From: Candidatus Nomurabacteria bacterium GW2011_GWA2_40_9
Lineage (GTDB): Bacteria > Patescibacteriota > Minisyncoccia > Phycocordibacterales > UBA9973
DNA: 56,357 nucleotides
NCBI GenBank assembly: GCA_000993955.1
Contig: LBZW01000006.1
Location: 1-56,357 of the forward strand
Direction: 5' to 3'
The translations under genes and the position numbers were made by a program. Under the pieces are notes generated by a model. It had not been told where the DNA came from, did not search any database, and worked only from the letters and a program-made list of their open reading frames with translations. This document shows, piece after piece, positions 7,329-38,353 of this stretch; within the stretch, counting starts at the first letter, position 1; every line of letters begins with the position of its first letter.

Positions 7329-8037
7329 AATATTAGGTTTTATTGGCGCCAGAGGTGGGTCAAAAGGGATTCAGGATAAAAACATTGCTCCATTTTGTGA
7401 CAAACCTCTCATCGCTTGGACCATGGAAGCAGCACGCAATTCAAAGTACTTAGATCGAACCATTGTTTCAACAGATTCTCCAAAAATATTTGAGATCGCA
7501 AAAAAGTTTGGAGCAGATGTACCTTTTTTACGTCCATCACGTCTTGCAAAAGATCACACTCCTGTTCAGCCTGCCATCTCTCACGCTTTGGAATGGATTA
7601 AAAAAAATGATATGGAAATTTATGATATTGTTGTTCTTTTACAACCCACATCGCCCCTACGAACACATATACACATTGATCACGCTTTAGAATTTTATTT
7701 TAAGAATAGAAAATCTCTGAGAGACACACTGGTTTCTGTAATTAGAGCACCCCAGAAAATGGGATGGCTCTTAAAAGAAACCTCTTTGGGATATGTAAAA
7801 GACTGTTTTGATATTTTGAAAACAAATCAAAGACAATCTTTATCCAATTTTTATTATTCCAATGGCGCTATTTTTATAACCCCCATTTATTCACATAAAC
7901 ACATTCAATTTTATACAAATCGAACACTACCTTATGTAATGCCGCCTGAGGTTTCAATAGATATTGATACCGATAAAGATTTTAAAATAGCAAAAAACTC
8001 TATGGTACGCCTATTAAATTCGAAGAAACACTTTTGA
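7312..8037 (+). CDS. Acylneuraminate (nonulosonate) cytidylyltransferase family, NeuA/LegF/PseF-like
   Basis: GFIGARGGSKGIQDKNI, LLQPTSPLR and SIDIDTDKDF motifs. The ATG at 7312 is chosen because the family N-terminus starts there; the track ORF from 7231 is an upstream extension. Confidence 0.8.
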   Translation: MYQKHKILGFIGARGGSKGIQDKNIAPFCDKPLIAWTMEAARNSKYLDRTIVSTDSPKIFEIAKKFGADVPFLRPSRLAKDHTPVQPAISHALEWIKKNDMEIYDIVVLLQPTSPLRTHIHIDHALEFYFKNRKSLRDTLVSVIRAPQKMGWLLKETSLGYVKDCFDILKTNQRQSLSNFYYSNGAIFITPIYSHKHIQFYTNRTLPYVMPPEVSIDIDTDKDFKIAKNSMVRLLNSKKHF

Positions 8038-9199
8038 TATCATAAAATTTTTTAAATAAAATATGATCCAAAGAAATATTTTCTAAAATTTTACACATTT
8101 TTTTGGAAGTATCCTTTATTTCATACAAAGACTGCGTATACTTCAATTGAGATTGAAAATCACTTGATAAAGCTTTTTGGATGGCACTAACAATAGCAGT
8201 CTCATTTTCCTTACAATCAATAATGGATCTGGCCTTTAACCTTCCTTCTTGTCTTTTTCCAATATTTACTGTTGGCTTTTTTAAAACAGGAGCTTCGATA
8301 ATGCCACTGGATGAGTTACCAATAAGAACATCACTGTTTTTTAAAACACTGCCGTACAACGATTGGCCCAATGAGGTAAAGAACATACATCTATCTGAAT
8401 GATTTCGAATATAGCGATGAATACTTTCTTCAATGATCTCACTCCTTGGATCACTATTATGTTGCGTAAATATAATGTGTGCATCTGGGAAATGATTCAA
8501 AGCCCGCAACAATTGAAATATTCCTTTTCTTTCTTTCTTATCTTCCAGAGTCAGAGGATGATACGTCACCAAAAATAGTGGGGAACGAAGCTGAAGGCCC
8601 AACTTACATTCCACTTCCTGACGACTCAATAAAGGAGACTTTTTATAAGATTCTAAACCTGGAGCACCCACCAAAAAAACAAAATTTGGCGACTCGCCCA
8701 ATTGAATGACTCGATGTCTGTACGCTTCAGCTGCTACAAAATGGATATGAGACATCTTAGTCAGCGCATGTCGAATCGCTTCATCTATAACACCTTGAGT
8801 AATTTCTCCCCCATGAATATGTGCGATTGGGATATTAGCCATCATTGCCGCCTGTGCAGCAATAAAAATTTCATATCGATCACCAAGAAGCAAAAGAATA
8901 TCTGATTTCAATGAATGAAATACTTTAGCAAATTGAATCAACCCTTTTCCCATAGACTGTGTTCTAGAAAGAGGCGAATCATCACTAAGTTGCAAATCAA
9001 CTTTTTTCAAAATTTTAAAACCATCCTTTAAGATCTCTTTATACGTCTCCCCATAGTTTTTGCTAATGTGCTGGCCCGTAGCAATGAGTTGCAAATGTAA
9101 TTTTTGACTTTTCTGAATTTCCTTCAATATCCAAAATAAATGCCCATAATCAGACCGATTTCCTGTAACAACTGTAATATTACGTTTCTTCAGGATCAT
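8000..9199 (-). CDS. NDP-N-acetylglucosamine 2-epimerase (hydrolysing), NeuC/LegG-like
   Basis: ITVVTGNRSDYG, IAHIHGGE and LIGNSSSGIIEAP motifs of the hydrolysing 2-epimerase family. Confidence 0.8.
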   Translation of the reverse strand: MILKKRNITVVTGNRSDYGHLFWILKEIQKSQKLHLQLIATGQHISKNYGETYKEILKDGFKILKKVDLQLSDDSPLSRTQSMGKGLIQFAKVFHSLKSDILLLLGDRYEIFIAAQAAMMANIPIAHIHGGEITQGVIDEAIRHALTKMSHIHFVAAEAYRHRVIQLGESPNFVFLVGAPGLESYKKSPLLSRQEVECKLGLQLRSPLFLVTYHPLTLEDKKERKGIFQLLRALNHFPDAHIIFTQHNSDPRSEIIEESIHRYIRNHSDRCMFFTSLGQSLYGSVLKNSDVLIGNSSSGIIEAPVLKKPTVNIGKRQEGRLKARSIIDCKENETAIVSAIQKALSSDFQSQLKYTQSLYEIKDTSKKMCKILENISLDHILFKKFYDIKSVSSNLIGVP

Positions 9200-10335
9200 G
9201 AAAGACTACTTGGTAATGTAATTAATTGATTACACAGAGCTTTTGCCTGAGATAGATCCATTGTGAATAATCCTTGATACATTGGAAGTTCTGGCAAAAG
9301 TTTCCATACGTGCTGTACTTGCCAAGGCGTTGATTGAAAATGTTCTATAATTTTTTCTTTTTCATTTGGAAAATCTAGAGAAATTTTAATGGCATTCAAC
9401 CAATAATTGCTGTGAGCATGCAAAGGCTCACTCACAAAAGTAATCCCCTTAATATGCATAAAACTTTCTTTATACTTTTGTGCTAAATTTCTTTTCAGCT
9501 TTAATGTTTCAGAGATATTTTCAAGTTGTGCATATCCCAAAGCCGCATTCACATTAGGCATTCGATAATTGTACCCAATCGTATCATAATAATAAGGATG
9601 TTCATGAGCCACTTTACCTGTATTAGATACATGCCTGATTTTCATGGCTAATTTCTCATTATTTGTCAATACAGCTCCACCGCCACCTGTTGTAATAATT
9701 TTATTTCCATTAAAACTTATGATGGTTGCCAAACCCGCATGCCCTACATGATTAGACTTATAGATAGATCCCAAAGCACCGGCTGCATCTTCAATAAGTT
9801 TAATATGAAATTGATCACAGATGTCACGTAATGAATCTAAATCTACTGGATGCCCAAAAACATGAACAGCAATTAAGGCTTTTATCGGCCGCTGTGTTCT
9901 CTTATTGATGCATACTCCTTTTCGAATGTCCGCTATTTCTGAAAGCCAAGACGAAAGCTTTCGAGGATCAACTCCCAAGGTGTCCATATCACTATCCACA
10001 AAATGTGGAATCGCACCACAATAGGTTACGGCATTTGCCGTTGCCACAAATGTGAATGCTGGCATTAATACTTCATCTCCCGGTTGAATATCAGAGAACT
10101 TTAAGACCAAGTGTAATGCAGACGTCCCATTGACCACAGCAATTACATGAGAAATGCCTGTAAAATCTGCTAACTTATTTTCAAATTTTGAAACATAGCT
10201 TCCTGCCGAAGACACCCACCTGGTATCTAAGCACTCTTTGACATACTTCCAAGCATTACTCTGAAATATCGGCTCATGTAATTTAGCCCCATTCGGAAAA
10301 ATTTCTTCTACTATTTTTGAAATATTCTCGATCAT
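9196..10335 (-). CDS. DegT/DnrJ/EryC1-family PLP aminotransferase (LegC/PseC-like)
   Basis: Layout is typical for the family: AVVNGTSALHL, IEDAAGALGS and the active-site Lys region ISFNGNKIITTGGGGAV. ATGA-type overlap with the 2-epimerase gene. Confidence 0.8.
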   Translation of the reverse strand: MIENISKIVEEIFPNGAKLHEPIFQSNAWKYVKECLDTRWVSSAGSYVSKFENKLADFTGISHVIAVVNGTSALHLVLKFSDIQPGDEVLMPAFTFVATANAVTYCGAIPHFVDSDMDTLGVDPRKLSSWLSEIADIRKGVCINKRTQRPIKALIAVHVFGHPVDLDSLRDICDQFHIKLIEDAAGALGSIYKSNHVGHAGLATIISFNGNKIITTGGGGAVLTNNEKLAMKIRHVSNTGKVAHEHPYYYDTIGYNYRMPNVNAALGYAQLENISETLKLKRNLAQKYKESFMHIKGITFVSEPLHAHSNYWLNAIKISLDFPNEKEKIIEHFQSTPWQVQHVWKLLPELPMYQGLFTMDLSQAKALCNQLITLPSSLS

Positions 10336-10356: not shown

Positions 10357-11643
10357 TTAAAGAGTGATTGTTTTAACGAATGTATTGCCATAAGAATCAT
10401 TAGAAGCAACTCCAATCGTATCGATATCATTGCTATGAATGGCATTTTCATCAAAGATATAATACCAACGTGTTAGAGAGGGATCAAAATTAAAATTGTC
10501 ATGAATAAACCGTCCGGACTTTGTTTTTACAGATAAAAAGGGCTGCGGCCCAAAGACTTTCCCCTTCTTTGTTTCTACTTTTAATATAAGCTCGTTAGAA
10601 ACATTTTCTAGAGTGGTATTCAGTTCTAGTTTTTCTCCAGAGAACTCTGGTCCATAGACCACATTTTTAAAAGCATTGACCGCTCCACTAAATTTAAATT
10701 GCACATCTGGAAATTTTTGAGATGCAATTTTTATCTTTTCTCTAACGCTATTGATTTCAGGACACATATCTCGAAAATCATGATTATTAAAAGCTAATAG
10801 TGTAGGTTTTCCAGTATGCGCACGATGGAAAGCTTTTTCTACTTCTTCTTGTGTTAATTCTCTACCTCTCATATTAATATCAATACATCTGGCAATCCAT
10901 CTCTTACAATTTCCAGGTATTTGCCAGCTATCAATGCTCGGCTGATAAACAGACCAATCGTCCGGCGCTAATCTCCAGTCTCCTGAACGACCATTCCGAA
11001 TATCCAAGTGCGATTGCAGTAAATGATCTGCGGAATGAAAAGCCCAATTCGTAAAATCAAAAGGAATCCATTGCTCAAAGAAAAGATGACTATCTGGCCT
11101 CTCTGCCTGAAACCCAGCTCGAACCGCCGCTGGAAATGTTTGTCGTTCAATAATCTTACGACAAAGCACCTGATACAAATGAGGAGAATTGACATAACTA
11201 GTCGCATTTTTGTGTGCTTCTTTATATATCGGCATAGGGTGAAAATGCCAATGCACTTCATCTTGAGATGATAAATACCTCTGCAGGGCTTCTTGATAAT
11301 AATCATAAATATTATGGTAACCCATATCCCTTTTTCGTGGATTATACTCATAGCCTACATGATCCAAGCAAAACCAATTATAAATCCATCCCCCTCCAAA
11401 AGAATCTAATATTTCTTTCCTAAAATGCTCAGACAAAATATTTTCAAGCATCTTATTAATTTTATCCCAATTATCATTATAACTCTGTAAGTGTGACGAA
11501 AAAGCCTCAGAAATCACAGATGTTTTATTTCCAAAATCAATTTCTTTATTTTGAATTTTTCTCAAATTACTTAGTGAAGGCTCTAAAAAAATTCCAAAGA
11601 TGCGTTTTATCCGCTCAAATGTGGCTGTTAAAGATTCATACAA
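10357..11643 (-). CDS. Conserved-looking hypothetical protein (428 aa), function unknown
   Basis: Long uninterrupted ORF embedded in the operon. His-rich motifs (HWHFHPMP, NNHDFRD) hint at a metal-dependent hydrolase/deacetylase-like fold, but no family was recognised. Confidence 0.5.
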   Translation of the reverse strand: MYESLTATFERIKRIFGIFLEPSLSNLRKIQNKEIDFGNKTSVISEAFSSHLQSYNDNWDKINKMLENILSEHFRKEILDSFGGGWIYNWFCLDHVGYEYNPRKRDMGYHNIYDYYQEALQRYLSSQDEVHWHFHPMPIYKEAHKNATSYVNSPHLYQVLCRKIIERQTFPAAVRAGFQAERPDSHLFFEQWIPFDFTNWAFHSADHLLQSHLDIRNGRSGDWRLAPDDWSVYQPSIDSWQIPGNCKRWIARCIDINMRGRELTQEEVEKAFHRAHTGKPTLLAFNNHDFRDMCPEINSVREKIKIASQKFPDVQFKFSGAVNAFKNVVYGPEFSGEKLELNTTLENVSNELILKVETKKGKVFGPQPFLSVKTKSGRFIHDNFNFDPSLTRWYYIFDENAIHSNDIDTIGVASNDSYGNTFVKTITL

Positions 11644-11727: not shown

Positions 11728-12495
11728 CTATTTAAGAAAGACACTCAAAATATCCAAGTGGTATTCTAATCCCAAACCATTTTTAAATATCCTATTCCCA
11801 CTTAAATCCCTTTCAGTCCAAGATCGTATAGGATCTTTTTGTTTTGGAAGATCAAAAGGGAAAAAAACTCTTTCAAATTTCCATTTCTTTACCAGTGGAT
11901 GTGGCTTTAAAAATTTTGAAATACTCTGTTTAGAAAATAAATTGTAACAACGTTTCCATGGACCCGTATCATGACTATATCGGTATCTCACAAGCCGATC
12001 TACTCCATAATCATTAAATGCACTTATTATAAATATAACCCCTGTTTTTTTACAGACCCTAAAACATTCATTGAAAACTGTTTTAAAATCGTCACACCCT
12101 GAAAGGACCCCCAAGAATGTAACAAAATCAAATTCATGGCTTCCCAATTGATCCATATGGTTCGCATCCCCTAGAATATAAGTGCATTCCTTATTATGCT
12201 GTCTCCCTACCTTGATAAGCTCCTTGTCGATGTCAATACAGGTACACTCCATTTTTGGGAAACATTGCTTTATGTAATAAGCAAACACCCCCCTCCCCCC
12301 CCCCACATCTAATAATTTTTTTGTCTGGAGTTTCCCTTTTAAAAGTTTTTTTATTTTATCTGCAATTAACGTAAATAAAAACTTTGGCTTAGCTCTCTTA
12401 TCAAATTTTATATAAATATGAGTAAAATCAACAACAGAATTATAAAAAGAAAGCTTACCCATCTTTCGATTTTCTCTTAGTTTCGCCACCTTCAT
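11728..12495 (-). CDS. Class I SAM-dependent methyltransferase carrying a G10-A-G6 tract in motif I
   Basis: Motif I LLDVGGGRGVFAYY is followed by an acidic motif II region. The GGGRG glycines are encoded entirely by a homopolymeric G run. Confidence 0.75.
   Translation of the reverse strand: MKVAKLRENRKMGKLSFYNSVVDFTHIYIKFDKRAKPKFLFTLIADKIKKLLKGKLQTKKLLDVGGGRGVFAYYIKQCFPKMECTCIDIDKELIKVGRQHNKECTYILGDANHMDQLGSHEFDFVTFLGVLSGCDDFKTVFNECFRVCKKTGVIFIISAFNDYGVDRLVRYRYSHDTGPWKRCYNLFSKQSISKFLKPHPLVKKWKFERVFFPFDLPKQKDPIRSWTERDLSGNRIFKNGLGLEYHLDILSVFLK
12288..12304 (-). repeat. Homopolymeric tract: C6-T-C10 on the + strand (G10-A-G6 on the coding strand)
   Basis: Counted directly: C at 12288-12293, T at 12294, C at 12295-12304. 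Reads gat gtg ggg ggg ggg agg ggg gtg (DVGGGRGV) on the minus strand. Confidence 0.95.
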
Positions 12496-13460
12496 CTCAG
12501 CCTCTCTTTAAATAAATTATCGATAAGAATCGTATGATCTTGCCTTGGTTGTTCTAATGCCGTAAAAGACTCTTTTTGAATCATATTCGATCGAAACCCA
12601 ATTTCAATACCTAATTTTTGCAATATTTTCAAGGTGTCTTGGTTGTAAGAATTGTTTGGGTGAGCCATAATAATAGATTTTTTACCTAAAAGTTTTACGA
12701 GCAATTCATCATTGAACGTGTATTCTCGTTTTTGCTCATCGAAAGAGAGAGTTCCCATCTGCGTTGGATGTGAATGTCCGTGTAAACCAATGATATGGCC
12801 CTCATCTGACAGTTTTTTTAATTCTGGCATCCCCATCCAAATTTTTTTGAGCGTCTTGTCTACATCAAAATCTTTTTGCATCATCAGTTGACTCATTAAG
12901 AGATGATACTGGAATGATGTAAGCACTTTATCACGTATATATCTGTATTTTCGATCATTATAAGTATAAAAATGAAACTCGTTGAGATAAGAAGAAAAAT
13001 TAAAATGATGAAGTGTGTTTTCAATGGCTTCAAAAAATGGCTGTTTTGAAAGTGCAAAAAAGAAAGCCTTATAGAAATCTTCTATGGTTTTAAAACACGT
13101 ATTACGAAAATATCTATATAATTCAAGATGTTCAATTTCTCCGTTTAGGCTCACTGTATTCACAAACCAAAAAGCGCGCATTCCAAATCTTTGTAAAATA
13201 GGATATGCAATATCATATTGCGACAAAAGACCATGGTCGAACGTAATACAAATATCTGACGAACAAAGACGGCCCTTCCGAAATTTATCTATCCATTCTT
13301 CCGGTTGGATAACTGAAGAACGGATAGATTCAAATAACAATAAACATTGCTCTTGCGTGATAGATCCCTGGCTAGGCGGATGAATTTCATTATGAAAATA
13401 ATGAAACATAATTCCATGAGCATATGGATACGCTGAAAGGTATTTTTTAAACGCCTTCAT
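12492..13460 (-). CDS. Polysaccharide deacetylase (NodB-homology) family protein
   Basis: ICITFDHGLLSQYD (degenerate DD motif), RAFWFV and LHGHSHP motifs. Overlaps the downstream methyltransferase by 4 nt. Confidence 0.65.
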   Translation of the reverse strand: MKAFKKYLSAYPYAHGIMFHYFHNEIHPPSQGSITQEQCLLLFESIRSSVIQPEEWIDKFRKGRLCSSDICITFDHGLLSQYDIAYPILQRFGMRAFWFVNTVSLNGEIEHLELYRYFRNTCFKTIEDFYKAFFFALSKQPFFEAIENTLHHFNFSSYLNEFHFYTYNDRKYRYIRDKVLTSFQYHLLMSQLMMQKDFDVDKTLKKIWMGMPELKKLSDEGHIIGLHGHSHPTQMGTLSFDEQKREYTFNDELLVKLLGKKSIIMAHPNNSYNQDTLKILQKLGIEIGFRSNMIQKESFTALEQPRQDHTILIDNLFKERLR

Positions 13461-14499
13461 TTATAAAATAGGATCATTTTGATTAAAGTTCTTTTTAGCT
13501 GGTATATTTATCATATTCCAAATATTATTGGCTAAGCAATGAGCTTCCGGACGTTTACATATCATATCATCCAACGATAATAATTTTCCTTTAGGAATAT
13601 ACCGTTTAGCATACACGCCCTTGCGTACCATTTTTTTATTTTTAATTTCAACAGGTGTAGGTTTCTTCTTCCCATTTCCAAGAGCGCGCTCAATAATTCG
13701 AATGGATCGCACCATATCTAGAAATTCTTTAGGCTCTAAAGAAGCCTCATGATCTGGGCCAGGAAGATTATTATCTAATGTAAGATGTTTTTCAATAACC
13801 CTAGCTCCTAGCTGGATATTCTGATACACAATGAAGTAGCACAACCTTCTCCTCTAATATTTTTCTGACTTTAGATTTTGAATATATTTTCTTCAATTGC
13901 TTTAAGGTAGGAATCTTTTTTGCCTTCAAATATCCAAAGGCAATAATTTTCAAAGCTCTCTTAATTTCTTTAAGCGTACTCATTCCTGTGGATAAAAGCA
14001 TAGGCTTTTGAGTTCTGGCCGCACATAACAAAAGATGATCGTGCGTTAACTCACCAGATGCCACTTTAATAAGAGGCATCTTAAATTTTTGGACCAAATA
14101 ACTTAAACTTTTGATATCAAAAGGGGTAGATAAAAATAAAATATTTCTCTTGTTACAATAGTTCACTATTTTCTCATGCATAGAAGCAGTCAGTTCTAAT
14201 CGCTTTAACATCTCATATTGAGTTAATGAGGATTCTTTTTTTCTCTGATAAAGTACTTTAGGCGCCTCTGGAACCACCAGATCGTCTGTATAAAAAGATT
14301 GAAATTTAATAGCATCCGCACCTGCTGTTTTTGCAGCATCAATAAGTTTAAACGCCATACTTAATGAACCATTATGGTTCACTCCTGCCTCAGCGATAAT
14401 AAATACTTTGTGTCTCAGAGTTTTTTCTATATAAGGCTGCATAAAAGTTGTATCTAGCTTAAAATCAATTAAACTTCTAGCATTAAAAAATGCTCTCAA
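13461..14499 (-). pseudogene. NeuB/LegI/PseI-type nonulosonic acid synthase, disrupted by an internal deletion plus frame change
   Basis: The N-terminal ORF (13801..14499) has IIAEAGVNHNGS, DAIKFQ and HCVSEYPA. The C-terminal ORF (13461..13844) starts at LGARVIEKHLTLD..GPDHEASLEP and includes the SAF domain. The ~40 residues normally between YPA and LGA, including the SDHT metal-binding motif, are absent, and the two halves are in different frames. Confidence 0.75.
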
Positions 14500-14595: not shown

Positions 14596-15399
14596 ATGCA
14601 GGCCACATACCGAAATAAGAATATCAATGAATATTGGCATGACCGGTGGGATCAGATCCCTATTGATTCGGTAATGAAAAATGAAAACATCTACCCACTG
14701 AAGTACGCAAACATGACCATTCAATCCCAGCAGGGAAGAATTTTAGAACTGGGCTGTGGACCTGGACGATTGCTGAGGTATTATAAAAATCGCGGATATA
14801 ATATTGTGGGAGTAGACTTTGTAGAAGCAATCATTGACAGATTAAAAAAAACAGACCCTGAATTACAGGTAGAAGCTGGAAATGCACAACGTCTTCATTT
14901 TAATGATAAATCTTTTCGTTATGTCTTGGCCTTTGGTATATATCACAATTTATTAGAAGATAGTTTAAAACATGCCATACAAGAAACCTTTCGAATTCTC
15001 GAACCTGGAGGAAAAGTATGTGCTTCTTTTCGAGCCGATAATTTCCAAAAAAAAATAATGGATCGGCTTTCAAAAAAACAAACCACTCATCAGCATGAAA
15101 ACAACACAATAAAAATATTTCATAAATTAAATCTTACTCGGCCTGAATGTATAACACTCTTTAAAGAAGCTGGATTTGAAGTGGAAAATATTTTCCCAGT
15201 AGAAAACATGTCTTTTCTTTATAAATTTTCTTGTTTTCGATCGAAATCTCAAAAATTATTTGATGAACATATCGCCAGAGAAGAAGGATATACACTGTCC
15301 TTTTTAGGTCAGACGATCCAGAAGTTTTTAATGAAACTTTTCCCTAATACATTTTGCAATGTCTATGTGTTAATTGCTAAAAAGAAAGAGATCTCATGA
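14596..15399 (+). CDS. Class I SAM-dependent methyltransferase (positional equivalent of C. jejuni Cj1419/Cj1420)
   Basis: Motif I ILELGCGPGRLL and post-I acidic residue VGVDF. ATGA overlap with the downstream kinase-like gene. Confidence 0.7.
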   Translation: MQATYRNKNINEYWHDRWDQIPIDSVMKNENIYPLKYANMTIQSQQGRILELGCGPGRLLRYYKNRGYNIVGVDFVEAIIDRLKKTDPELQVEAGNAQRLHFNDKSFRYVLAFGIYHNLLEDSLKHAIQETFRILEPGGKVCASFRADNFQKKIMDRLSKKQTTHQHENNTIKIFHKLNLTRPECITLFKEAGFEVENIFPVENMSFLYKFSCFRSKSQKLFDEHIAREEGYTLSFLGQTIQKFLMKLFPNTFCNVYVLIAKKKEIS

Positions 15400-18300
15400 A
15401 TCATTCTTTTCAGGAAGATCAACCAAATAAGATAATCCCATTAAAGGCCATTATCTTAGGTGCAAATCGAGGCATTCGTCGTTTAGACAGTACAAAAAGT
15501 TACCCTCATGCTCTTGGAAAAGGTATCTTTGGAAAATCCGTTTTAGATTGGCAATTATCTTCATTCAAGGCTTGTGGAATTAAAGACATTGTCTTTGTGG
15601 GAGGATATCATTTAGAAAAAATAATCGCAAAATATCCAGGCTTAAACTATTATTTCAATCCTAAGTGGGATTCTTCTGGCTCACTTTTTTCTCTCTTTTG
15701 TGCTCGGGAGGAGTTAACAGAGCCTTGCCTGATCATTTATTCTGACGTTGTTTTTCGACTGAATGTCCTTCAACAATTTATAGCCTGTTCCCAAAATAAT
15801 AAGATTATAATAGGCATCGATCGATCCCCTGATACCGACCTAAGAGAAATGTACAAATCCGAACATATCGAAAGCGTCCAACTGTCACATGAAAATTTAG
15901 TCAAAATAGGCCCACAGATGAATTCCCTTGGAAAAGAAGATGGATTATTCACCGGACTTTGTTTTCTCCCACAACCTATTGTCTCTCAATTAAAAGAAAA
16001 ATTTACCTCCCCCCAATGGATTAACTCACCCCATATTAAAAAATTAAATTTTTCAGATATGTTACAAGAATTACTCAAAGAAGGAAAAAACTTCCAGACA
16101 TATAATATCTCTCAAGACTGGGCTAAGATTCAAAATCCCTTTAGCTTAGCAAGATTTATTTTTGGAACGAAAGCTCAAACCTTGGAAAGATTACGTCAGG
16201 TTATCAAAGGGGCTACCATTCTGGATCAGATTCGCTTTAGTGTGGAGGATTGGACCCACCAGCCAGAAAACATTTTAAATAAAATACAAAAAAAGCTTTC
16301 CTCCAATCAAGTAATTATTCGAAGCAGCGCCTCAAGCGAAGACACATGGGAGTCTTCGAATGCAGGACTTTTTTATAGTGAAAAAACCGTAGACATCAAC
16401 AATAGAGATTTACTACACCAAGGGATTGAACGTGTCATTTCGAGTTTTCAGGCTGCTACGGGCGAACACAACTTAGACCAAGTTTTTGTTCAACCCTATA
16501 TTTCTAATTTAAAAATGTCTGGTGTTATATTCACTAGAGAGCTTGAAAGTGGAGCCCCTTATATCATCATTAATTACTCTTCACATCCTGATAAAACAGA
16601 TGTCATCACTTCTGGATGGAGTGACAATGTTCAAACATTTATTGTATATAAATATACGGACTTTAAAGGTACAGATCCAAATATTATTCAATTACTAAAA
16701 TTAGTTAAAGAATTAGAACAATCCACTAATCTTGATTCCCTTGATATTGAATTTGCTATTGATCAACATGATGACTGTTTTTTATTTCAAGCCAGACCTT
16801 TAGTTTTGCCCTTAATTCGAAAAAAATTTAATGATAAAGATTTTGTTTTAGAAAAAAATTCAATAAAAACATTTATTAATAATCTCATGCAACGTCGTCC
16901 TTATTTATTTGGAGAAAAAACAATTCTCGGGAACATGCCTGATTGGAATCCTGCAGAAATGATTGGCACCGCTCCGAGACCTTTGGCCTTAACGCTGTAT
17001 CAATATCTTATTACAGATAAAGTATGGGGGGAAAGCCGCCAATGTCTGGGATATAAAGATACATACCCAGAACCCCTAATGATCTCATTAGCAGGAAAAC
17101 CTTACATAGATATCCGAACGAGTTTGAACTCTTTTCTCCCAAAGGAACTTTCTCTTGAAGTTTCCGAAAGATTAATTAATTATTATTTAGAACGCTTACA
17201 ACGGTATCCCAATTTTTTTGATAAACTTGAATTTGAAGTCGCCATTACTTGCTTGAGTTTTGATTTTGATAAGCATGCAAGAAATCTTACAGAATCCGGA
17301 TTTCAAAAATCTTCCATTGATGAAATTAAAACATCTGTCTTAAAGTTAACCAACAACATTTTAAATGAAACCTCGATAAACTTAGATCATCAATTACAGC
17401 AACTAGAGATCCTCACCAAAAGAAGAGAGAATATTTTATCTCTCAAAAATATTAGTGCCTCAGAAATACTCAAGGGCATCCATAACCTTTTAGATGATTG
17501 CATACGATATGGAACATTGCCCTTTTCTAACTTAGCCAGGTGTGCCTTCATTTCGACCGCATTTCTAAAATCGCTTCATAGCATCAAAATCTTATCACAA
17601 GCTGACTATGATCTTTTTTTACAATCCATTCCCACCATAGCTTCCGAGATATCTGAAGACATGACACGTATGGTTCATGGAAGCCTATCCATGAAAGATT
17701 TCTTAAATCGTTATGGTCATTTGAGACCTGGGACCTATGACATCCTTTCACCAAGGTATGATGAATCTCCTGAAATTTATTTTCCAAATATTATCCAAAC
17801 CAACTCTCTTCAAGAAAAACGAAACCCCATAAAAACAGAAAGAGATGCAAAGGAAATAATTTTGGAAAAACGCCCTGCACTTAATGCTTTGCTCAAACAA
17901 CATGGAATAACCTGCTCATCTGAACAATTAGTGTATTTTATGGTAAAAAGTATCCAAGCTAGAGAATATGCTAAGTTTGAGTTTACAAAGAATATCAGTG
18001 TCGTCTTACAGAAATTAAGCCAATTTGGAGAAATAAATAATATGTCCATAGATGATATGTCATTTACTTCTATATATTATTTACTTTCACTTTCAACCAG
18101 TAATCCTCCAAGTGATATAAAAAGAGATCTTAAGATGCATGCAAGACGGCATATGAAACAATATGCCCTTACCCAATCAATACAATTGCCATCACTCATT
18201 TATTCATCTGATGATTTAGATTATTTTTACCACAAGGAAATGCAGCCAAATTTTATAACATCAAAGAAAGTCACCGCAGACCTCTTAAAGTTAGATAAAC

Positions 18301-18560
18301 TGACTCACGAAAAATTGGATCTTACAGACAAGATTATATGTATTGAAAATGCTGATCCTGGTTATGACTGGATTTTTGGATATAAGATCGCTGGTCTTGT
18401 GACTAAGTATGGAGGCATTGCATCACACATGTCCATTAGAGCAGCAGAATTTGGCTTACCTGCGGCCATTGGTTGTGGAGATGTCATTTTCCAAAAAATA
18501 TTGCATTCCACAAAAATAGAGTTAAATTGTGCTACTCGGCAAATTCATTTTGTGAAATAA
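15396..18560 (+). CDS. Fusion: N-terminal nucleotidyltransferase domain plus PEP-utilising/PPDK-like ATP-dependent kinase (Cj1418-like L-glutamine kinase candidate)
   Basis: Residues ~10-250 form an NTP-transferase fold (AIILGANRGIRR...YSDVVF). The ATP-grasp/PPDK N-domain motif VIIRSSASSEDTWESSNAGLF follows. The C-terminal swivel phosphohistidine motif is LVTKYGGIASHMSIRAAEFGLPAAIGCG. Confidence 0.65.
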   Translation: MNHSFQEDQPNKIIPLKAIILGANRGIRRLDSTKSYPHALGKGIFGKSVLDWQLSSFKACGIKDIVFVGGYHLEKIIAKYPGLNYYFNPKWDSSGSLFSLFCAREELTEPCLIIYSDVVFRLNVLQQFIACSQNNKIIIGIDRSPDTDLREMYKSEHIESVQLSHENLVKIGPQMNSLGKEDGLFTGLCFLPQPIVSQLKEKFTSPQWINSPHIKKLNFSDMLQELLKEGKNFQTYNISQDWAKIQNPFSLARFIFGTKAQTLERLRQVIKGATILDQIRFSVEDWTHQPENILNKIQKKLSSNQVIIRSSASSEDTWESSNAGLFYSEKTVDINNRDLLHQGIERVISSFQAATGEHNLDQVFVQPYISNLKMSGVIFTRELESGAPYIIINYSSHPDKTDVITSGWSDNVQTFIVYKYTDFKGTDPNIIQLLKLVKELEQSTNLDSLDIEFAIDQHDDCFLFQARPLVLPLIRKKFNDKDFVLEKNSIKTFINNLMQRRPYLFGEKTILGNMPDWNPAEMIGTAPRPLALTLYQYLITDKVWGESRQCLGYKDTYPEPLMISLAGKPYIDIRTSLNSFLPKELSLEVSERLINYYLERLQRYPNFFDKLEFEVAITCLSFDFDKHARNLTESGFQKSSIDEIKTSVLKLTNNILNETSINLDHQLQQLEILTKRRENILSLKNISASEILKGIHNLLDDCIRYGTLPFSNLARCAFISTAFLKSLHSIKILSQADYDLFLQSIPTIASEISEDMTRMVHGSLSMKDFLNRYGHLRPGTYDILSPRYDESPEIYFPNIIQTNSLQEKRNPIKTERDAKEIILEKRPALNALLKQHGITCSSEQLVYFMVKSIQAREYAKFEFTKNISVVLQKLSQFGEINNMSIDDMSFTSIYYLLSLSTSNPPSDIKRDLKMHARRHMKQYALTQSIQLPSLIYSSDDLDYFYHKEMQPNFITSKKVTADLLKLDKLTHEKLDLTDKIICIENADPGYDWIFGYKIAGLVTKYGGIASHMSIRAAEFGLPAAIGCGDVIFQKILHSTKIELNCATRQIHFVK

Positions 18561-18562
18561 AT

Positions 18563-19222
18563 ATGAAAATAGGCATTTCCATGCGAACAGCTCCCATTCT
18601 ACAAACTCGTGAAAATCACGATATGATTAGTCATGATTGGCTAAATTTTTTACACTCCTTGCAATTTGAATGGGTACTTATTCCAAATCTTAAAAAACAA
18701 CCTCTTAAAGATAACATACAAGCATTAATATTGAGTAATGGGAATGACATCGGAATGTTTAATAATCGAGATAAAAGTTTTTTATCTGATGTTTCTTCTG
18801 AAAGAGATGAAACAGAGCTTCAGCTTCTTCAGCATGCCATTAAAAATAAACTACCTGTTCTTGGAGTGTGCCGTGGTATGCAATTTATTAATGGGTATTT
18901 TAATGGAGAACTTAAAAAAATCCATTCGCCTATGGAACATGCTGGATGTCACCATCAAATTGATATTATTGACAGCCGGTTTACCCCCGCGTTAGGCAAA
19001 GAACTCACAGTTAATTCTTTTCACAAATTTGGTGTCTTCACAGATCATATTTCAAATAATTTAAGAACATTTGCAGTCCATCGGCAACATAAAATCTGTG
19101 AAGGCCTTTATCATCCGGAGTTGCCTATAGTAGGAATTCAATGGCATCCAGAACGTCAAAGTTCAGATGGAGAAAAGGTTAAATTATTCATTAATAACTT
19201 TCTACGAGGTCATTTTTTTTGA
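18563..19222 (+). CDS. Class I glutamine amidotransferase / peptidase C26 gamma-glutamyl hydrolase (Cj1417-like)
   Basis: Nucleophile elbow LPVLGVCRGMQFING and His motif IVGIQWHPE. ATG at 18563 lies 2 nt after the upstream stop; the track ORF from 18473 is an out-of-context extension. Confidence 0.7.
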   Translation: MKIGISMRTAPILQTRENHDMISHDWLNFLHSLQFEWVLIPNLKKQPLKDNIQALILSNGNDIGMFNNRDKSFLSDVSSERDETELQLLQHAIKNKLPVLGVCRGMQFINGYFNGELKKIHSPMEHAGCHHQIDIIDSRFTPALGKELTVNSFHKFGVFTDHISNNLRTFAVHRQHKICEGLYHPELPIVGIQWHPERQSSDGEKVKLFINNFLRGHFF

Positions 19223-20022
19223 AACAACCCATAACACCTAAACTTATTATTTTAGCAGCCGGTGAAGGCAGCAGGTTAAAACCTTACACTCTTGATAAGC
19301 CCAAGTGTCTTGTTCCATTACATGGCAAAAGTATTCTCAGTTGGCAAGTTAGTTTGGCTCATCAATTTAATATTTATGACATTATTGTAGTTAAAGGTTA
19401 TAAACACGAAAAAATCCAGGAAAACCACATTCGAAGCTATATTAATACAGCTTATGATCACACAAATATGGTTGAAACACTCTGGTGCGCCCAAGAAGAG
19501 TTTAAAGAAGATATTATTATCTCGTATGGAGATATCTTATATAATGCAGATGTACTCTCAGCCTTAATACAGTCGCCTCATGATATTTCCGTTGTTATTG
19601 ACAAAGACTGGTTGCAGTACTGGAAGCAACGTTTTATAAATCCCTTAGAGGACGCTGAAAGTTTACATATAGATAGTTCAGGTAAAATACTAGAGATTGG
19701 TCAAAAAGTTAGCGATTACACAAAAATTCAAGGTCAATTTATTGGATTAATGCGATTTAAAAATAATGGCATTAAGGCTCTTAAAAATTTTTATATGCTA
19801 GCTAAAGAAGAGACAGGTTGTGGAAAAAAAATTTTTAGAACCCCTCGTCCTTTTCACAAGATTTTTATGACTGATTTTTTACAAGGCATGATTGATTTTG
19901 GATATCCTATACTTGAAGTCCCCATAAAAAGGAATTGGTTAGAAATTGATTCACCTTCAGACTATGATTTAGCTAAACAAATAACAATATCAGAAACTTC
20001 ACAGTTAAAATTTTTAAGCTGA
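19219..20022 (+). CDS. Nucleotidyltransferase (Cj1416-like CTP:phosphoglutamine cytidylyltransferase candidate; LicC-like fold)
   Basis: LIILAAGEGSRLKPYTLDKPKCLVPL motif. TTG start in a TTGA overlap with the upstream stop. Confidence 0.65.
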   Translation: MKQPITPKLIILAAGEGSRLKPYTLDKPKCLVPLHGKSILSWQVSLAHQFNIYDIIVVKGYKHEKIQENHIRSYINTAYDHTNMVETLWCAQEEFKEDIIISYGDILYNADVLSALIQSPHDISVVIDKDWLQYWKQRFINPLEDAESLHIDSSGKILEIGQKVSDYTKIQGQFIGLMRFKNNGIKALKNFYMLAKEETGCGKKIFRTPRPFHKIFMTDFLQGMIDFGYPILEVPIKRNWLEIDSPSDYDLAKQITISETSQLKFLS

Positions 20023-20051
20023 AGGGCTTCTGATCTCTAAGGTAGGCACCT

Positions 20052-20567
20052 ATGGTTTTATGGTTAATCGGAATGTCAGGCGCTGGAAAGACAGTAATTG
20101 GACGTGAAGTGTATGTTCAATTAAAAAAAACATATAAAAATATCATTTTTTTCGATGGGGATACTATTCGAGAACTCATGGGAAATGATTTAGGTTATAA
20201 CATTTCGGATAGGAAAAAAAATGCAAATAGAATATGTCGGCTTTGTCATTTCTTTGACGCACAAGGTATCCATGTCATCTGTGGTATCTTGTCAATTTTT
20301 CATGAATCTCAAAAATGGAATAAAGAAAACATTAAAGATTATTACGAGGTATATTTAAAAACTTCCCTTAAAATATTACAAATGAGAGATTCAAAAAATC
20401 TTTATAGGCAATCACAAAAAGGTGAGACACACCATGTTGTAGGCATGGACATTAAATTTCCCGAACCTTTAAACCCAGATCTTATCGTACACAATGACGG
20501 CGCAGACTCTGTAGAAGATATAGCTCAAACCATTATATCTAAACTCATTGAAAGAAAACTTATTTAG
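20052..20567 (+). CDS. APS-kinase-fold nucleotide 3'-kinase (CysC/Cj1415-like; cytidine diphosphoramidate kinase candidate)
   Basis: P-loop LIGMSGAGKT, FFDGDTIR, DRKKNANR and the LYRQSQKGE..VVGMD..FPEP layout of adenylylsulfate kinases. Confidence 0.7.
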   Translation: MVLWLIGMSGAGKTVIGREVYVQLKKTYKNIIFFDGDTIRELMGNDLGYNISDRKKNANRICRLCHFFDAQGIHVICGILSIFHESQKWNKENIKDYYEVYLKTSLKILQMRDSKNLYRQSQKGETHHVVGMDIKFPEPLNPDLIVHNDGADSVEDIAQTIISKLIERKLI

Positions 20568-29060: not shown

Positions 29061-31320
29061 TTGGATAAAATTAAGATGTTTAAAAAAGAGCTTATAGCTA
29101 TTTTCTTTATCATTATTATTGTTCTTATTGGTTATCATGAAATATTTTTAGGGGCAAATTTTTTTACAAATGCAGATCCCCTCGGATCTTCTCATTTGAC
29201 ATATCGTACACCCATCAATGGATGGAGACCAGATATTCGATTTGGCGGTTCTTTGTTCTTGGGAGACCCTGGGGAATCACATCCATGGTCCTTAACTTCT
29301 TTATTTGAAAAAATTCCTCTCTCTCAGAAAGATTCCTACAGTTTTTTAGTCATCCTATTGGGTATTTGTACTGCACTCTCATTATATTTCTTCTTGAGAC
29401 AAGTTGTTCCAGAATTAGGAAGATATGTGGCTATTCTTGCCCCTCTCAGTGTTTTTTGCCAAGAACAATTTAATAGTCAGCATGCACGCTTACGCTGTAC
29501 TCTTTCTGTCGGCGTCCCTTTGTTTTTAATGCTTCTGTATTCTTTCTATAAGAAACCGAGATTATTACATTACTTTTTTGCAAGTCTTCTCTTTTGGTTT
29601 GTTGCTTTCATGGGTACTCTATGGGGCCTTACTCAAATGCTAACAATAGGTGTCTTATTCTCAATACTATACACCCTTTACTTTAAAGAGGATCTCCGTC
29701 TAATGGTCATTAAGTTTTTCTCAATTTACATACTAGGTAATTTGACCATGATTTGTTTAGGGATGTGGGTGTTTTATTCATTTTTCTGGGAATATATCCA
29801 TAACCTGGACCTTCCAGGAATCCCCTGGCGTCCTTTGGGACATTTTTTTAATGCATTAATGATAATGCCACTTATTACAGTATTTTTTATTTTCCATCGA
29901 TCTAAAAATTTTTGGGAATACGCATTAAAATGGCTCGTGATCCTTATTGTTGCACAATATGGGCTTGTAAAACTATTCCCATTTTATGGAGATATTCTTG
30001 CTTTTATATCTCATAAAAGCTCAACAATTATTAATTTGAGTATATATGAAGGAGGTTATTTTCCTTTGCAAATTGGATTAATAGCTATTTTTCTTTCAAA
30101 AGCGAGTAAAAAGAACTCCACCATTAAAAAATTATGGGCTAGCAGAATCCAAACTGGGATAGCCTATTTATTAATAACATCTTATTTTTGTCTTCTTTTA
30201 TTCGCACTTATTTCTATCTTGTTACCAGAACTTATCCCTACGGTTATCTCTTATGTAGTCCAAACCTTTGGTCCACAACATCTGGGCAATTATTCAAACG
30301 AATTTTTAATATATGTTGTATCTTTTATCATAAGACGCTTACAACACGCCATGAGCTGGCATGCCATTTTATTTTATGTATCAAGCATTCTCTTGGTAGC
30401 ATTATTCATCAAAAATAAATGGTTTTTTAATAATCCCCATAAACAAAAAGTATTAATTCCTTCTCTTTTGCTTTTAAATGGAATTATGTTTTCATGGACA
30501 GTCTATCCATTAAATTATGAAAAGTTCCAGAAAAGAAACAATCGAAAAATTTAAAGAAAACTGGGTAAACCTAGAGGGTCAAGGAGACAGAGAATATCTA
30601 ATTGGCGAATTCATCCCCCCCAGCCTGAATCTTTCCACAGCATTTCATTTTATGCCTACTGATGTTGGAAACTTTATTTTTAAAATTTTTAATGTCGATA
30701 AAACAACAAAAATAAGACAGCCAAGAGAGCTCAGTCAAGGCCCCTTTGTATCCTCTGAATTATTAGATATGGGGGCCGTTAATCATTACTACTCACGCGT
30801 TCCAATTCCAGATCTACCTAAAAATTTATCCCTTATCTACAAAGGAAAACAACTTTACATATATAAAAACCTTTCTGCATGGCCATACTTCTACTTAGCA
30901 AAAAATTTAAAAGTCAAAACAAATTCAGAATATCCGCATGTTCAACGAAATACTGCATACATAGAAAAAAAAGAGGATTTCTTTAGCTTGTCTAAAGAAG
31001 CTGGAAAAGCCCGTCTAAAAATGAAAGAATTTTTATACGGGCGAATGGTATTTGATTTTGAGAGCAAACAAAAAGAATTTTTGGTCATCGCTGATGCTTG
31101 GCACCCTCTTTGGAAGACAAAAGCAAATGGGGATTATCTCCCAATAATAAAAACAAATGAGATTTTTAAAGGAGTCATATTACCCGCAGGAAAATATGAC
31201 ATAACTGTTTTTTTTGATTATTCCCCTTATCTTGTGGGAATTTACTTAAGTGTTATTTTTTGGATATTATTCTCTGTAGGAATGTTTTTGGCTTGGAAAT
31301 ATCGATCTGAAGATTTCTGA
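29061..31320 (+). pseudogene. YfhO-like GT-C membrane glycosyltransferase split into two overlapping ORFs (29061..30554 and 30517..31320)
   Basis: The first ORF is a polytopic membrane domain. The second ends with the characteristic YfhO C-terminus (ADAWHPLWKTKANGDYLPIIKTNEIFKGVILPAGKYDITVFFDYSPYLVGIYLSVIFW plus a final TM). Together they are ~764 aa, the usual size of one YfhO protein. The frames switch within 30517-30554. Confidence 0.5.
30615..30621 (+). repeat. C7 homopolymer inside the YfhO-like C-terminal ORF
   Basis: Counted directly (ttc atc ccc ccc agc). Confidence 0.9.
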
Positions 31321-36088: not shown

Positions 36089-37346
36089 CTAAAAATATTG
36101 CTGTAATAGTGGACTTATCATTTTTAAATCATTTTGATCTCTCACTTCTAATGAAGAATACGGATAAGAAATTTCATGAATACCTACTTTTTCACCTAAT
36201 AGTTTTCCCTGCCTAATAAATTCAGGATGAGTCACACACCCTAAACCTCTCAGTTCCATAAAAAGAGAGTTTTTAAATTGTCTAGGAATAATTCCTTCTT
36301 CAATTTGGACTAATCTATTCTCTTCTTCTTTCCATAACGCCTTATTTTCCTTTTTAGCGGCTATAACACTATCGTAGCCCTGTTGAAGCAATTTCAAAAT
36401 CATTTCGTCGATCAATCCAGTAGTTCGGAATGGAAAAGTAGGTTCAAGAGAAACAATCAAATCTGGATATATTTTAGATTCTTCTACTTTTTCTAATGAA
36501 TATTGAAGAACTTTGGAAATATCAATATATTCCTTCGAATAAAAAGGATCTCTGATAAAAGGAATTTGGGCTCCTAGTTTTTTTGCCACCTCTGCAGTTT
36601 CAACATCATCTGTAGAAACAATAATATTTTTAATATATTTAGATTCCAAAGCTCTTTGAACAGTATAGTAAATTAGTGGTTTATCATTTAAATACTGAAG
36701 AGAGCCTCGTACGGGAATAACAGCAACAATATTGAGTTTTTCTGCTGAAATAACTTTATAGTTATCTTCTTTTAAATTTTCTAATATTTTAACAACCTTT
36801 GCACATCGCTCTTCCTCTCCATTCTGATGAATTCCATGATAATGGTAAACGCTGGCTTCGGGTTCATAAATAATTTTATATTGTTGATAAAGCATTGATT
36901 GAACCCATAGTCGATCTTCAATATTTGTAATGTTTTCATCAAAAGGATGTTTTTCCCAAAGATCCCGGCGAATAGCACTATTAGCATTATGAAAAAAACT
37001 ATCTTTTCGTTGAATCTTTCGATCCAATCCAAAAACAATGGCTAAATCTCGTTTATCTGAATCCGAACTAAAAGATAAAGGCTCTTGACGACCATTTTGA
37101 TTCTCTAATCCCCTGATTTAATGCTTTTCCAGGTTTATAATCTGTACACATAATAATTTTTTGAACATCAAATTGCCGTGCTTTTTCGATGGTTCTATCA
37201 CTGCTCTCATTATCAACAATAATCACTTCAAAATGAATATATTCTTGATGAAATACTTCTTGTAAACATTGAGTAATCCACCTCTCTTCATTTTTAGTTC
37301 TAATAATAATAGAAACTAAATCATTCATATTCTCTTGTTCTTCCAA
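36089..37346 (-). pseudogene. GT2 glycosyltransferase fused to an acylneuraminate-cytidylyltransferase-like domain, with the GT2 part frameshifted and internally shortened
   Basis: 37068..37346 encodes the GT2 N-terminus (VSIIIRTKNEE, IIVDNESSDRT, GKALNQGI) and then terminates. The next frame continues with the GT2 C-terminal motif FFHNANSAIRRDLWEKHPFDE..EDRLW, followed by a CTP_transf_3-like domain (VAVIPVRGS...IIVSTDD...SLEPTFPFR). About 50 residues expected between the two GT2 parts are missing. Confidence 0.6.
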
Positions 37347-37354
37347 ATCTCATC

Positions 37355-38353
37355 TTAAATATCAACAGAAAGCCTTGATAAACGATGTATTATAGGACCA
37401 TCAAATTTTTTAATAAATGGAACTTTTATTTTTAAAAATTTGACACTATTTTTAGAAAAAGGGTGTATGTGTAAAAAAAATTTATACCAGGGACAATATT
37501 CATTAACATAATGCTGATCCGTCTTAACATATGGATATTTACTAAACTCTAATACTTCCCCCCCCATTAAGACCTTTCTCTCTCTATTACAGCAATAAAA
37601 TAAATTTTCTTTTGATAAATTCAAACGAAGAAAATTAAAATATCCTTGTATAGACTCTGGCTTCATCTCTTGCATAGACACAATATTAATAGCGATATCT
37701 ATTTGAAATACTTGAGATAAAAGGTTTAACTTATCTGCAGGACAATATAGAAAGTCAATCTCTTCTATGTTGTTAACTAAATTAATATTATTGATGGAAG
37801 CATGTATATATTTCTTATGAACTTTTTGGCAATAATATGCTTGAAATAATAATGTTTTACCTAAATCTACTAGAATAATTGTCGAATTCGGAAAACAATC
37901 TTTGATTAAAGACCCCATCAATCCATAGCCATCTCCTATAATAAAAAAAACAAGTCTATTTTTATTAACCATATTATGAGTCATATGCCTCATAATTAAA
38001 TTCAAACTCAAGATTTGTTTAAAAACATCAAAAGATACACTAAAACCAGCGCATTTACATATTCGTCTCGCTTTATGAAGAAGCTGGATAATATTTTTCT
38101 TATCCTCATGTTTTAGAATATGGATCATATGTGAAATCCAATTAAGGCACTGTTGCACTGGATTTCTTGTCATTAAATCTCCAAATCCAATGCCACTTAA
38201 ACTTAATATGGATTTTTCTTCATCAAGTTGCACAGAAAACTGATTAGAATAATGTACCCAATGAGATGAAAAATCTTTATTTACATCAAGATTACTTTCT
38301 TGATAATAAGAGTGATAGAGTTCTTTTATCAAATTCCTATTCGGCATATCCAT
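37355..38353 (-). CDS. Putative sugar O-methyltransferase-like protein, containing a G8 tract
   Basis: Rossmann-like FFIIGDGYGLMGSLI and VDLGKTL. Operon context. Family assignment is tentative. Confidence 0.5.
   Translation of the reverse strand: MDMPNRNLIKELYHSYYQESNLDVNKDFSSHWVHYSNQFSVQLDEEKSILSLSGIGFGDLMTRNPVQQCLNWISHMIHILKHEDKKNIIQLLHKARRICKCAGFSVSFDVFKQILSLNLIMRHMTHNMVNKNRLVFFIIGDGYGLMGSLIKDCFPNSTIILVDLGKTLLFQAYYCQKVHKKYIHASINNINLVNNIEEIDFLYCPADKLNLLSQVFQIDIAINIVSMQEMKPESIQGYFNFLRLNLSKENLFYCCNRERKVLMGGEVLEFSKYPYVKTDQHYVNEYCPWYKFFLHIHPFSKNSVKFLKIKVPFIKKFDGPIIHRLSRLSVDI
37558..37565 (-). repeat. C8 on the + strand (G8 on the coding strand) homopolymer
   Basis: Counted directly. Reads tta atg ggg ggg gaa gta (LMGGEV) on the minus strand. 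Confidence 0.95.

Follow-up and report, generated by a model that had tools for sequence, protein, structure and literature searches.

A G10-A-G6 tract at motif I of a putative nonulosonate-tailoring methyltransferase gene from groundwater, a candidate for phase variation

We analysed a contig of 56,357 nt (LBZW01000006.1; the whole stretch is referred to below as the window), whose NCBI record reads 'Candidatus Nomurabacteria bacterium GW2011_GWA2_40_9', i.e. a member of the Candidate Phyla Radiation (CPR). The subject is a G-rich tract within a gene of the minus strand (11728..12495), whose 255-aa product, exactly identical to KKR79518.1, is a class I S-adenosylmethionine (SAM)-dependent methyltransferase matching Pfam Methyltransf_11/23/25. 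Direct reading of the plus strand at 12288-12304 gives C6-T-C10 (context aacaCCCCCCTCCCCCCCCCCacatc), which on the coding (minus) strand is an interrupted homopolymer, G10-A-G6, composed of G10 at 12295-12304, A at 12294 and G6 at 12288-12293. The corresponding codons (gat gtg ggg ggg ggg agg ggg gtg ttt) specify D63-V-G-G-G-R-G-V70-F, so that the tract runs from the last base of V64 through G65 G66 G67 R68 G69 to the opening base of V70. It occupies nt 192-208 of the 768-nt open reading frame (ORF) and begins about 25% into the gene. A G/C homopolymer of the class of about 8 nt or longer therefore lies inside the ORF, as G10 followed by A and G6.

The match to Methyltransf_11 (PF08241; E = 3.8e-16, 59.9 bits with a cut-off of 21.2) aligns residues 62-156 with profile positions 1-95, and six further Pfam methyltransferase models (seven in all) score above their cut-offs. 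Since the domain match opens at residue 62, which is profile position 1, the tract coincides with motif I, the glycine loop of class I SAM methyltransferases; direct reading and the Pfam alignment agree on this point with a preliminary description of the window, which had placed the tract at the motif I glycines. That description had also expected the protein to be truncated by a change of a single G, and in silico this is the case. The G10 form yields 255 aa, G9 yields 74 aa and G11 yields 87 aa, while slips in the shorter run have the same consequences (74 aa for G10-A-G5 and 87 aa for G10-A-G7). A one-unit change thus toggles between a full-length (ON) and a truncated (OFF) product. A G-quadruplex was considered and rejected by inspection, because four G3 tracts with loops cannot be drawn from G10-A-G6; transcriptional slippage or programmed frameshifting need not be invoked, since the DNA is already in frame.

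The gene is part of a same-strand run extending from 14499 to 8000. The run is headed by a NeuB-type nonulosonic acid synthase gene (13461..14499, minus), which is present as two ORFs in the window and as an intact gene of 365 aa elsewhere, and continues with a gene for a polysaccharide-deacetylase-family protein (12492..13460, minus), the upstream operon partner, whose stop overlaps the start of the methyltransferase gene (ATGA). Downstream of the methyltransferase, on the same strand, are encoded a 428-aa protein without a family match (10357..11643), a LegC-family aminotransferase (9196-10335; TIGR04181, 485 bits, cut-off 420) and a NeuC/NnaA-type UDP-GlcNAc 2-epimerase (8000-9199; TIGR03568, 459 bits, cut-off 236); a PseF-like CMP-sugar synthetase and a nucleotidyltransferase are encoded nearby on the opposite strand. 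The pairing of the LegC-family aminotransferase with NeuC/NnaA identifies the pathway as legionaminic-acid-type, and the methyltransferase is encoded inside this cluster. Homologues of the enzyme in other genomes adjoin NeuB, CMP-sugar synthetase and HisH/HisF-like genes as well as a WbuX (PtmG/WbpG-type) amidotransferase gene (TIGR03573), the last of these in loci L022, L025 and L065; no WbuX partner was found in the window among the subset of ORFs scanned against NCBIfam. From this gene context we infer that the enzyme tailors a nonulosonic acid by methylation.

A profile search recovered about 160 relatives of the window protein. Close relatives of 53-100% identity, sought for a comparison of tract length between strains, are absent from 5.8 billion protein clusters. 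In the 94 parsable relatives from outside the window, motif I has the form D-[VI]-G-[GCA]-A-[SAT..]-G-[ADE]. The alanine corresponding to position 67 is kept in 92 of the 94, and G67, R68 and V70 are confined to the window protein and two near-identical variants, one of which carries V70G. In the close homologues L022, L023 and L025, and in four of the six found in reference genomes (L026-L029), motif I is spelled with a mixture of codons and lacks a G run. Because Ala67 is near-invariant and these relatives lack the run, the origin of G10 required a non-synonymous change; amino-acid changes, including that of Ala67, built the tract, which counts toward a switch. Outside the tract, the window protein keeps all of the columns that are invariant among its five closest relatives, and methyltransferase function has probably been retained despite the GGGRG loop, since G-G-G-x-G is a standard motif I of other methyltransferase families.

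Contigs covering the locus were fetched via the exact protein and via two neighbouring genes, which leaves the sample unbiased toward the ON state. Besides the window, the tract is carried by 11 assemblies (ERZ27254754, ERZ28563625, ERZ978281, ERZ27254745, JGI 3300025308, SRR2090155, ERZ28563660, ERZ4903072, ERZ27254759, ERZ4903137 and ERZ28563657), being identical in nine and of the same length with an edge substitution in two. They derive from several samples and several assemblers (megahit k141/k127, Logan, JGI contigs, ANAN16 scaffolds). An error of sequencing, assembly or polishing (the last two foreseen in the preliminary description as a possible refutation) might be suspected, given that G-rich runs are error-prone on Illumina and that the window assembly has missing pieces of ~100 nt elsewhere. 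The 17-nt tract recurs with its frame unchanged in 11 other assemblies, which excludes an assembly artefact, and we consider this explanation effectively refuted.

The sole recurrent polymorphism of the gene lies at the edge of the tract. It is a coding-strand T-to-G change at position 12287 (minus; GTG to GGG, V70G), present in L020 (ERZ4903137) and L021 (ERZ28563657), which is located directly 3' of G6 and turns the tract into G10-A-G8 (protein variant P0008). A substitution that lengthens a run at its edge is the type of change expected from misalignment mutagenesis, and counts toward a switch. The sequences of two contigs, L014 and L015, stop 69 and 33 nt short of the tract on its upstream side; their interpretation as an assembly bubble was rejected, as the breaks lie off the tract and the contigs are short and of low coverage. 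The short family matches P0118-P0120 were rejected as halves of an OFF-state gene and probably reflect sequencing error; they come from Pilon-polished, presumably long-read assemblies, in which many adjacent genes are also fragmented. A pattern scan of JGI metagenomes (both flanks, variable gap) retrieved no allele, the canonical one included, and is uninformative, the organism being apparently absent from them.

The G+C content of the window is 29-37%, and G/C runs of at least 8 nt occur in it only twice: as the C10 of the tract and as a C8 at 37558-37565. The latter is a G8 on the minus strand (atg ggg ggg gaa, M-G-G-E), situated at about codon 263, i.e. ~80% into the gene, of a 332-aa putative sugar O-methyltransferase (37355-38353, minus; NCBIfam TIGR04371 NanM, 60 bits, cut-off 44). 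Among the window ORFs, GGG accounts for 20% of Gly codons and AGG for 10% of Arg codons, and the other class I methyltransferases write motif I in mixed codons. When the synonymous codons of the 54 ORFs of at least 100 aa were shuffled 1000 times with the proteins kept, a G/C run of 10 or longer arose in 2.6% of the shuffles (P = 0.026), and runs of 8 or longer had a mean of 0.52 per shuffle, compared with the two observed (P = 0.10). Given the protein sequence, the tract is uncommon, yet not extraordinary, and the overall case for its being more than a chance run is of moderate strength. The preliminary description had seen in the codon choice a sign of selection and had proposed a count of long G/C runs. 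As an argument for selection, codon choice is weak when taken alone (P about 0.03), and the excess of long runs over the shuffles is modest. The approximately 66 kb available for the organism contain three long tracts, all in surface-type genes; as the whole window is a glycan island, an enrichment of tracts in glycan genes cannot be judged there. Among the G/C runs of at least 6 nt, seven of eight are poly-C on the plus strand, which matches the GC skew, negative throughout the window (C 10449 vs G 8090).

Among 43 homologous metagenome loci surveyed, intragenic poly-G was found in three further lineages. The first is represented by L053 (JGI contig Ga0209212_1005407, 37% G+C), in which a G8 (L053:3365-3372) in a KxGG motif puts the gene out of frame; a G9 would restore a protein of 237 aa, and this reconstruction shares 47% identity with the window protein. 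At least 18 contigs carry the broken form and no other form is on record, so that the gene is either locked OFF or a pseudogene. In the two other lineages a G9 precedes motif I by 6-7 codons and is in frame (E-A/V-G-G-G in L058 and L062; F-P-G-G-G in L064 and L065). In the gut homologue represented by L064, L065 and L073, the tract is G9 in the ON form (L065:3105-3113) and G10 in the OFF form (L073:2984-2993), and over 6570 nt L073 differs from L065 by no mismatch and a single gap, the extra G that puts it out of frame. The ON product of the L065-type gene is found on 15 contigs, and the OFF-type products on at least 13 (P0248, 198 aa) and on others (P0252, 212 aa). The adjacent gene for a WbuX/PtmG-like amidotransferase in L064, L065 and L073 bears a G8 (L065:3890-3897) that breaks its frame; one more G would repair it. 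A sister clade, with an uncultured Lachnospiraceae metagenome-assembled genome (MAG; L028, 70% identity) among its members, has DFNAESFKM at the position of the tract and no tract, and the linker before motif I consists of 4, 5 or 6 residues in different relatives. No published poly-G phase variation was found for the L065/Lachnospiraceae-related group in literature searches that were not aimed at this group. As judged from these sequences, relatives of the window enzyme appear to carry working poly-G switches.

Whether the tract in the window might be the product of relaxed constraint or early decay, that is, a hypermutable run on its way to a fixed frameshift, as has perhaps happened in L053, has to be considered here. 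The three unique substitutions in motif I (with the near-invariant Ala67 among them), the segregation of the V70G variant, and the at least 18 L053 contigs that are out of frame with no ON allele on record would all fit such a course. We nevertheless regard it as improbable, because the columns invariant among the five closest relatives are all kept outside the tract, G-G-G-x-G is functional in other class I methyltransferases, the protein exceeds the cut-offs of seven Pfam models, and the frame is intact in every assembly.

The recurrence of poly-G in the family can itself be set against chance. At a shuffle rate of about 0.007 per gene and with ~30 lineages assumed to be independent, ~0.2 genes with such a run would be expected by a rough calculation, compared with the three extra lineages observed. 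A far-reaching interpretation, which we offer as a speculative one and hold to be rather unlikely at present, is that poly-G frameshift switches arose several times over, each time independently, in the nonulosonic-acid tailoring methyltransferases of this family in unrelated bacteria. Their positions would be motif I in the groundwater organism, the KxGG motif in another organism from an aquifer, and the pre-motif-I linker in the gut bacteria, whose nearest named relative in this data set is the Lachnospiraceae MAG; Campylobacter PtmH may be a further case.

Taken together, these observations make it plausible that the G10-A-G6 tract is a homopolymeric contingency locus, a reading to which we assign a probability of roughly 0.45. 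The length and position of the tract, the class of the gene, the costly residue changes, the recurrence in the family and the presence of other tracts all count toward it. The case for a phase-variation candidate made in the preliminary description accordingly stands as far as the tract, its effect on the frame, the gene class and the ON/OFF alleles of relatives are concerned, and lacks length variation at the locus itself. The locus is credible as a switch and undemonstrated as one, and we treat it as a candidate only.

Several observations weigh against a switch. There was no change of length in the 12 assemblies, all of which have 17 nt and are in frame, and the comparison with related genomes called for in the preliminary description therefore revealed no variation. 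Seven products predicted for altered tracts (for G9/G11, the N-terminal stubs plus three candidate C-terminal ORFs; for G7/G13, the in-frame forms) were sought by exact look-up in ~15 billion proteins, and none is present, although the same look-up detected the OFF alleles of the gut homologue, which served as a positive control and shows that the method is able to reveal switches that vary. The tract is located in the catalytic SAM-binding loop, where little change should be tolerated, whereas that of the gut homologue lies in a variable linker. Interruptions are generally thought to stabilise repeats, and the A shortens the longest run. The shuffle rate of 2.6% per 56-kb window makes a G10 somewhere in a far larger genome unsurprising. 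The same VGGG spelling is found elsewhere too: in L025, where a nonulosonate cluster from an unrelated organism (46% G+C) is found, a G10 (L025:3782-3791; GTG GGG GGG GGG) encodes the conserved TVGGGI of a HisF-like gene and is in frame. Finally, the G8 of the NanM-like gene is constant in five assemblies picked via a neighbouring gene, and its predicted G7/G9 products are absent from the record by exact product look-up.

These points would be accommodated by an incidental and effectively stable run of GGG/AGG codons at motif I, without a regulatory role, which slips occasionally as any homopolymer does and from which OFF alleles are selected out. We take this to be a serious possibility, with odds somewhat short of even. 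It would explain why the 12 assemblies are invariant and no OFF products are on record; the shuffle P of only 0.026 for the window, the GTG GGG GGG GGG at the TVGGGI of the HisF-like gene, and the functional constraint on the loop fit it as well. It accounts less readily for the replacement of an Ala found in 92/94 relatives together with two further unique residues, for the recurrence of poly-G in the family with ON/OFF alleles demonstrated in a relative, and for the other long G/C runs in surface-type genes of the organism. Moreover, all 12 assemblies are consensus sequences from one aquifer in which minority alleles are not visible, so that their identity is weak evidence against minority variants.

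If the tract is a contingency locus, its operation can be envisaged as follows. Slipped-strand mispairing during replication would add or remove a G in G10 and, less often, in the adjacent G6. In the G10-A-G6 state the gene would be ON and produce the full 255-aa enzyme; in G9 or G11 a frameshift inside motif I would leave peptides of 74 or 87 aa without the methyltransferase fold, and a second slip would bring the frame back. The enzyme would tailor a nonulosonic sugar of the legionaminic-acid type by methylation and would be non-essential and probably PtmH-like, acting on the CMP-sugar or on its N-acyl or amidino group. Switching would then render a clonal population mixed for a methyl group on a surface glycan (flagellin, lipopolysaccharide (LPS) or capsule), and this heterogeneity would alter recognition by phages, predators or grazers. 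Of this scheme, the tract, its effect on the frame, the gene family, the pathway context and the poly-G tracts of relatives with their ON/OFF polymorphism are observed; a useful rate of switching, the surface exposure of the glycan and the exact substrate are inferred.

Other runs and genes of the organism were noted during the analysis. About 3.1 kb left of the window start, in an independent assembly of 72.6 kb (L043:6262-6277, plus strand), a C8-T-C7 lies in a 60-aa ORF between lolA and dapF, where it encodes P-P-L-P-P straight after a lipoprotein-like signal peptide (MKLLILIFSLLSFCFSCG); its run-T-run layout on the plus strand is that of C6-T-C10. The exact look-up of this ORF and its variants was empty, the reference form included, and is uninformative. 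A C7 is present at 30615-30621, ~100 nt inside the ORF 30517-31320; other assemblies include this ORF in a gene of 815 aa. Relative to other assemblies, the window lacks pieces of ~100-110 nt in NeuB, in a family 2 glycosyltransferase (GT2)/CTP-transferase gene (36089-37355; split in the window, 447 aa elsewhere) and near 38.8 kb. The 497-aa and 267-aa ORFs (29061-31320), which form the single 815-aa gene elsewhere, suggest a fourth, unaligned missing piece. These losses look like collapsed scaffold gaps, not pseudogenes.

Next to the legionaminic-acid-type cluster, four consecutive genes at 15396-20567 resemble the Campylobacter genes for the O-methyl phosphoramidate (MeOPN) precursor, Cj1418 to Cj1415, and stand in the order that these have in Campylobacter. 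The first encodes a pyruvate phosphate dikinase/phosphoenolpyruvate-utilising enzyme (PRK05849, 893 bits) fused to a nucleotidyltransferase, the second a protein like gamma-glutamyl-CDP-amidate hydrolase (101 bits, below the cut-off), and the third and fourth an NTP transferase and an adenosine phosphosulfate (APS) kinase-like protein. Another methyltransferase gene (14596-15399) is located just upstream of this block. A role in sulfation is an alternative for these genes, because a sulfotransferase is encoded nearby. Scans of the window for tRNA genes and Rfam families gave no matches.

The taxonomic label of the contig deserves caution. The independent 72.6-kb assembly (L043) runs left of the window into LolA, DapF, DapA, DapB, an aminotransferase and phosphofructokinase (PFK) genes. 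The DapA of this longer assembly matches a protein from 'Deltaproteobacteria bacterium GWA2_38_16' (taxid 1797802) at 100% identity, and the next-best named matches are from deltaproteobacterial MAGs. A LolA homologue and a diaminopimelate (DAP) pathway do not fit a CPR genome. The contig is thus probably mis-binned and does not belong to Nomurabacteria, as far as can be judged from these genes. Claims of novelty resting on a CPR origin are dropped for this reason; a phase-variation switch in CPR bacteria would have been the more striking result, but the flanking genes argue against such an origin.

Homopolymer contingency loci in glycan-tailoring genes are well known; what is unusual here is the host and the position within motif I. 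To our knowledge, work on such loci has dealt almost exclusively with host-adapted pathogens. Should the tract prove to be working, a switch in a legionaminic-acid methyltransferase from an aquifer would extend contingency loci to environmental populations and, considered together with the ON/OFF alleles in the gut, would point to pressure from phages or predators on sialic-acid-like glycans as the driver. The recurrence of poly-G across the family is a more interesting lead than the single tract. Had switches been gained repeatedly in this way, stochastic ON/OFF methylation of sialic-acid-like surface sugars would be a general form of bet-hedging, used by free-living as well as commensal bacteria and most plausibly directed at phages, instead of the speciality of a few pathogens.

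The precedent in Campylobacter to which the preliminary description had appealed is real: poly-G contingency genes of this genus modify flagellar and capsule glycans and include ptmH (Cj1325/6) and the 6-O-methyl transferase gene cj1426c (PMC8355987, PMC6003734, PMC7677240). Working Campylobacter switches are mostly G9-G10 and undergo 1e-4 to 1.6e-3 indels per division (PMC8355987). PtmH methylates CMP-Leg5Am7Ac to Leg5AmNMe7Ac and its gene lies among the legionaminic acid (ptm) genes, and both host passage and laboratory evolution bring changes in the Cj1325 tract (PMC3766260, PMC6003734, PMC7677240, PMC8355987). Like ptmH and cj1426c, the window gene is a SAM methyltransferase ORF of an AT-rich genome with a run of the G9-G10 type, in which one G suffices for truncation. 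As with PtmH, it lies inside a legionaminic-acid-type operon, a likeness of gene context. The window tract differs in being interrupted (G10-A-G6), in its location in motif I itself and in having shown no length variation. Furthermore, Campylobacter is a host-associated pathogen in which the absence of mismatch repair matters for switching, whereas the host of the window is an uncultivated groundwater bacterium.

Within the family, a close parallel is offered by the gut homologue (P0246 in L064/L065/L073), which shares 29-31% identity by tblastn with the query of the family alignment (A1, whose first sequence is the window protein). Both proteins have the TMLGVLSIFDDF and DPxRSWT motifs, and both genes combine a nonulosonic-acid cluster with a frame-deciding poly-G near motif I. 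Unlike the tract of the window, that of the gut homologue (G9 ON, G10 OFF) lies 6-7 codons upstream of motif I with both alleles common, and the WbuX/PtmG-like neighbour bears a second tract.

A comparable gene arrangement is known from Legionella: the neighbourhoods of PtmH (Cj1325/6) and of Legionella ORF 8 are similar to that of the homologues (PMC3766260, PMC6003734, PMC13317340). In the LPS locus of Legionella pneumophila serogroup 1, ORF 8 encodes a methyltransferase beside neuB, and N-methylation is tied to a phase-variable epitope (PMC3766260). The window gene resembles ORF 8 in being a methyltransferase gene in a legionaminic acid locus with neuB, and a protein of Legionella clemsonensis (P0108) belongs to the family of the window protein (profile E = 3.5e-40, 32% identity). 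A scan of reference genomes resting on two short peptide patterns returned no Campylobacter or Legionella locus. The Legionella epitope switches via excision of a genetic element, not via a homopolymer. Frameshifting by poly-G or poly-C inside the ORF is the basis of ON/OFF expression of the lipooligosaccharide/LPS glycosyltransferases of Neisseria, Haemophilus and Helicobacter (lgtA/C/G, futA/B). Unlike the methyltransferase of the window, these enzymes are glycosyltransferases; they belong to host-adapted pathogens, and experiments have measured their switching.

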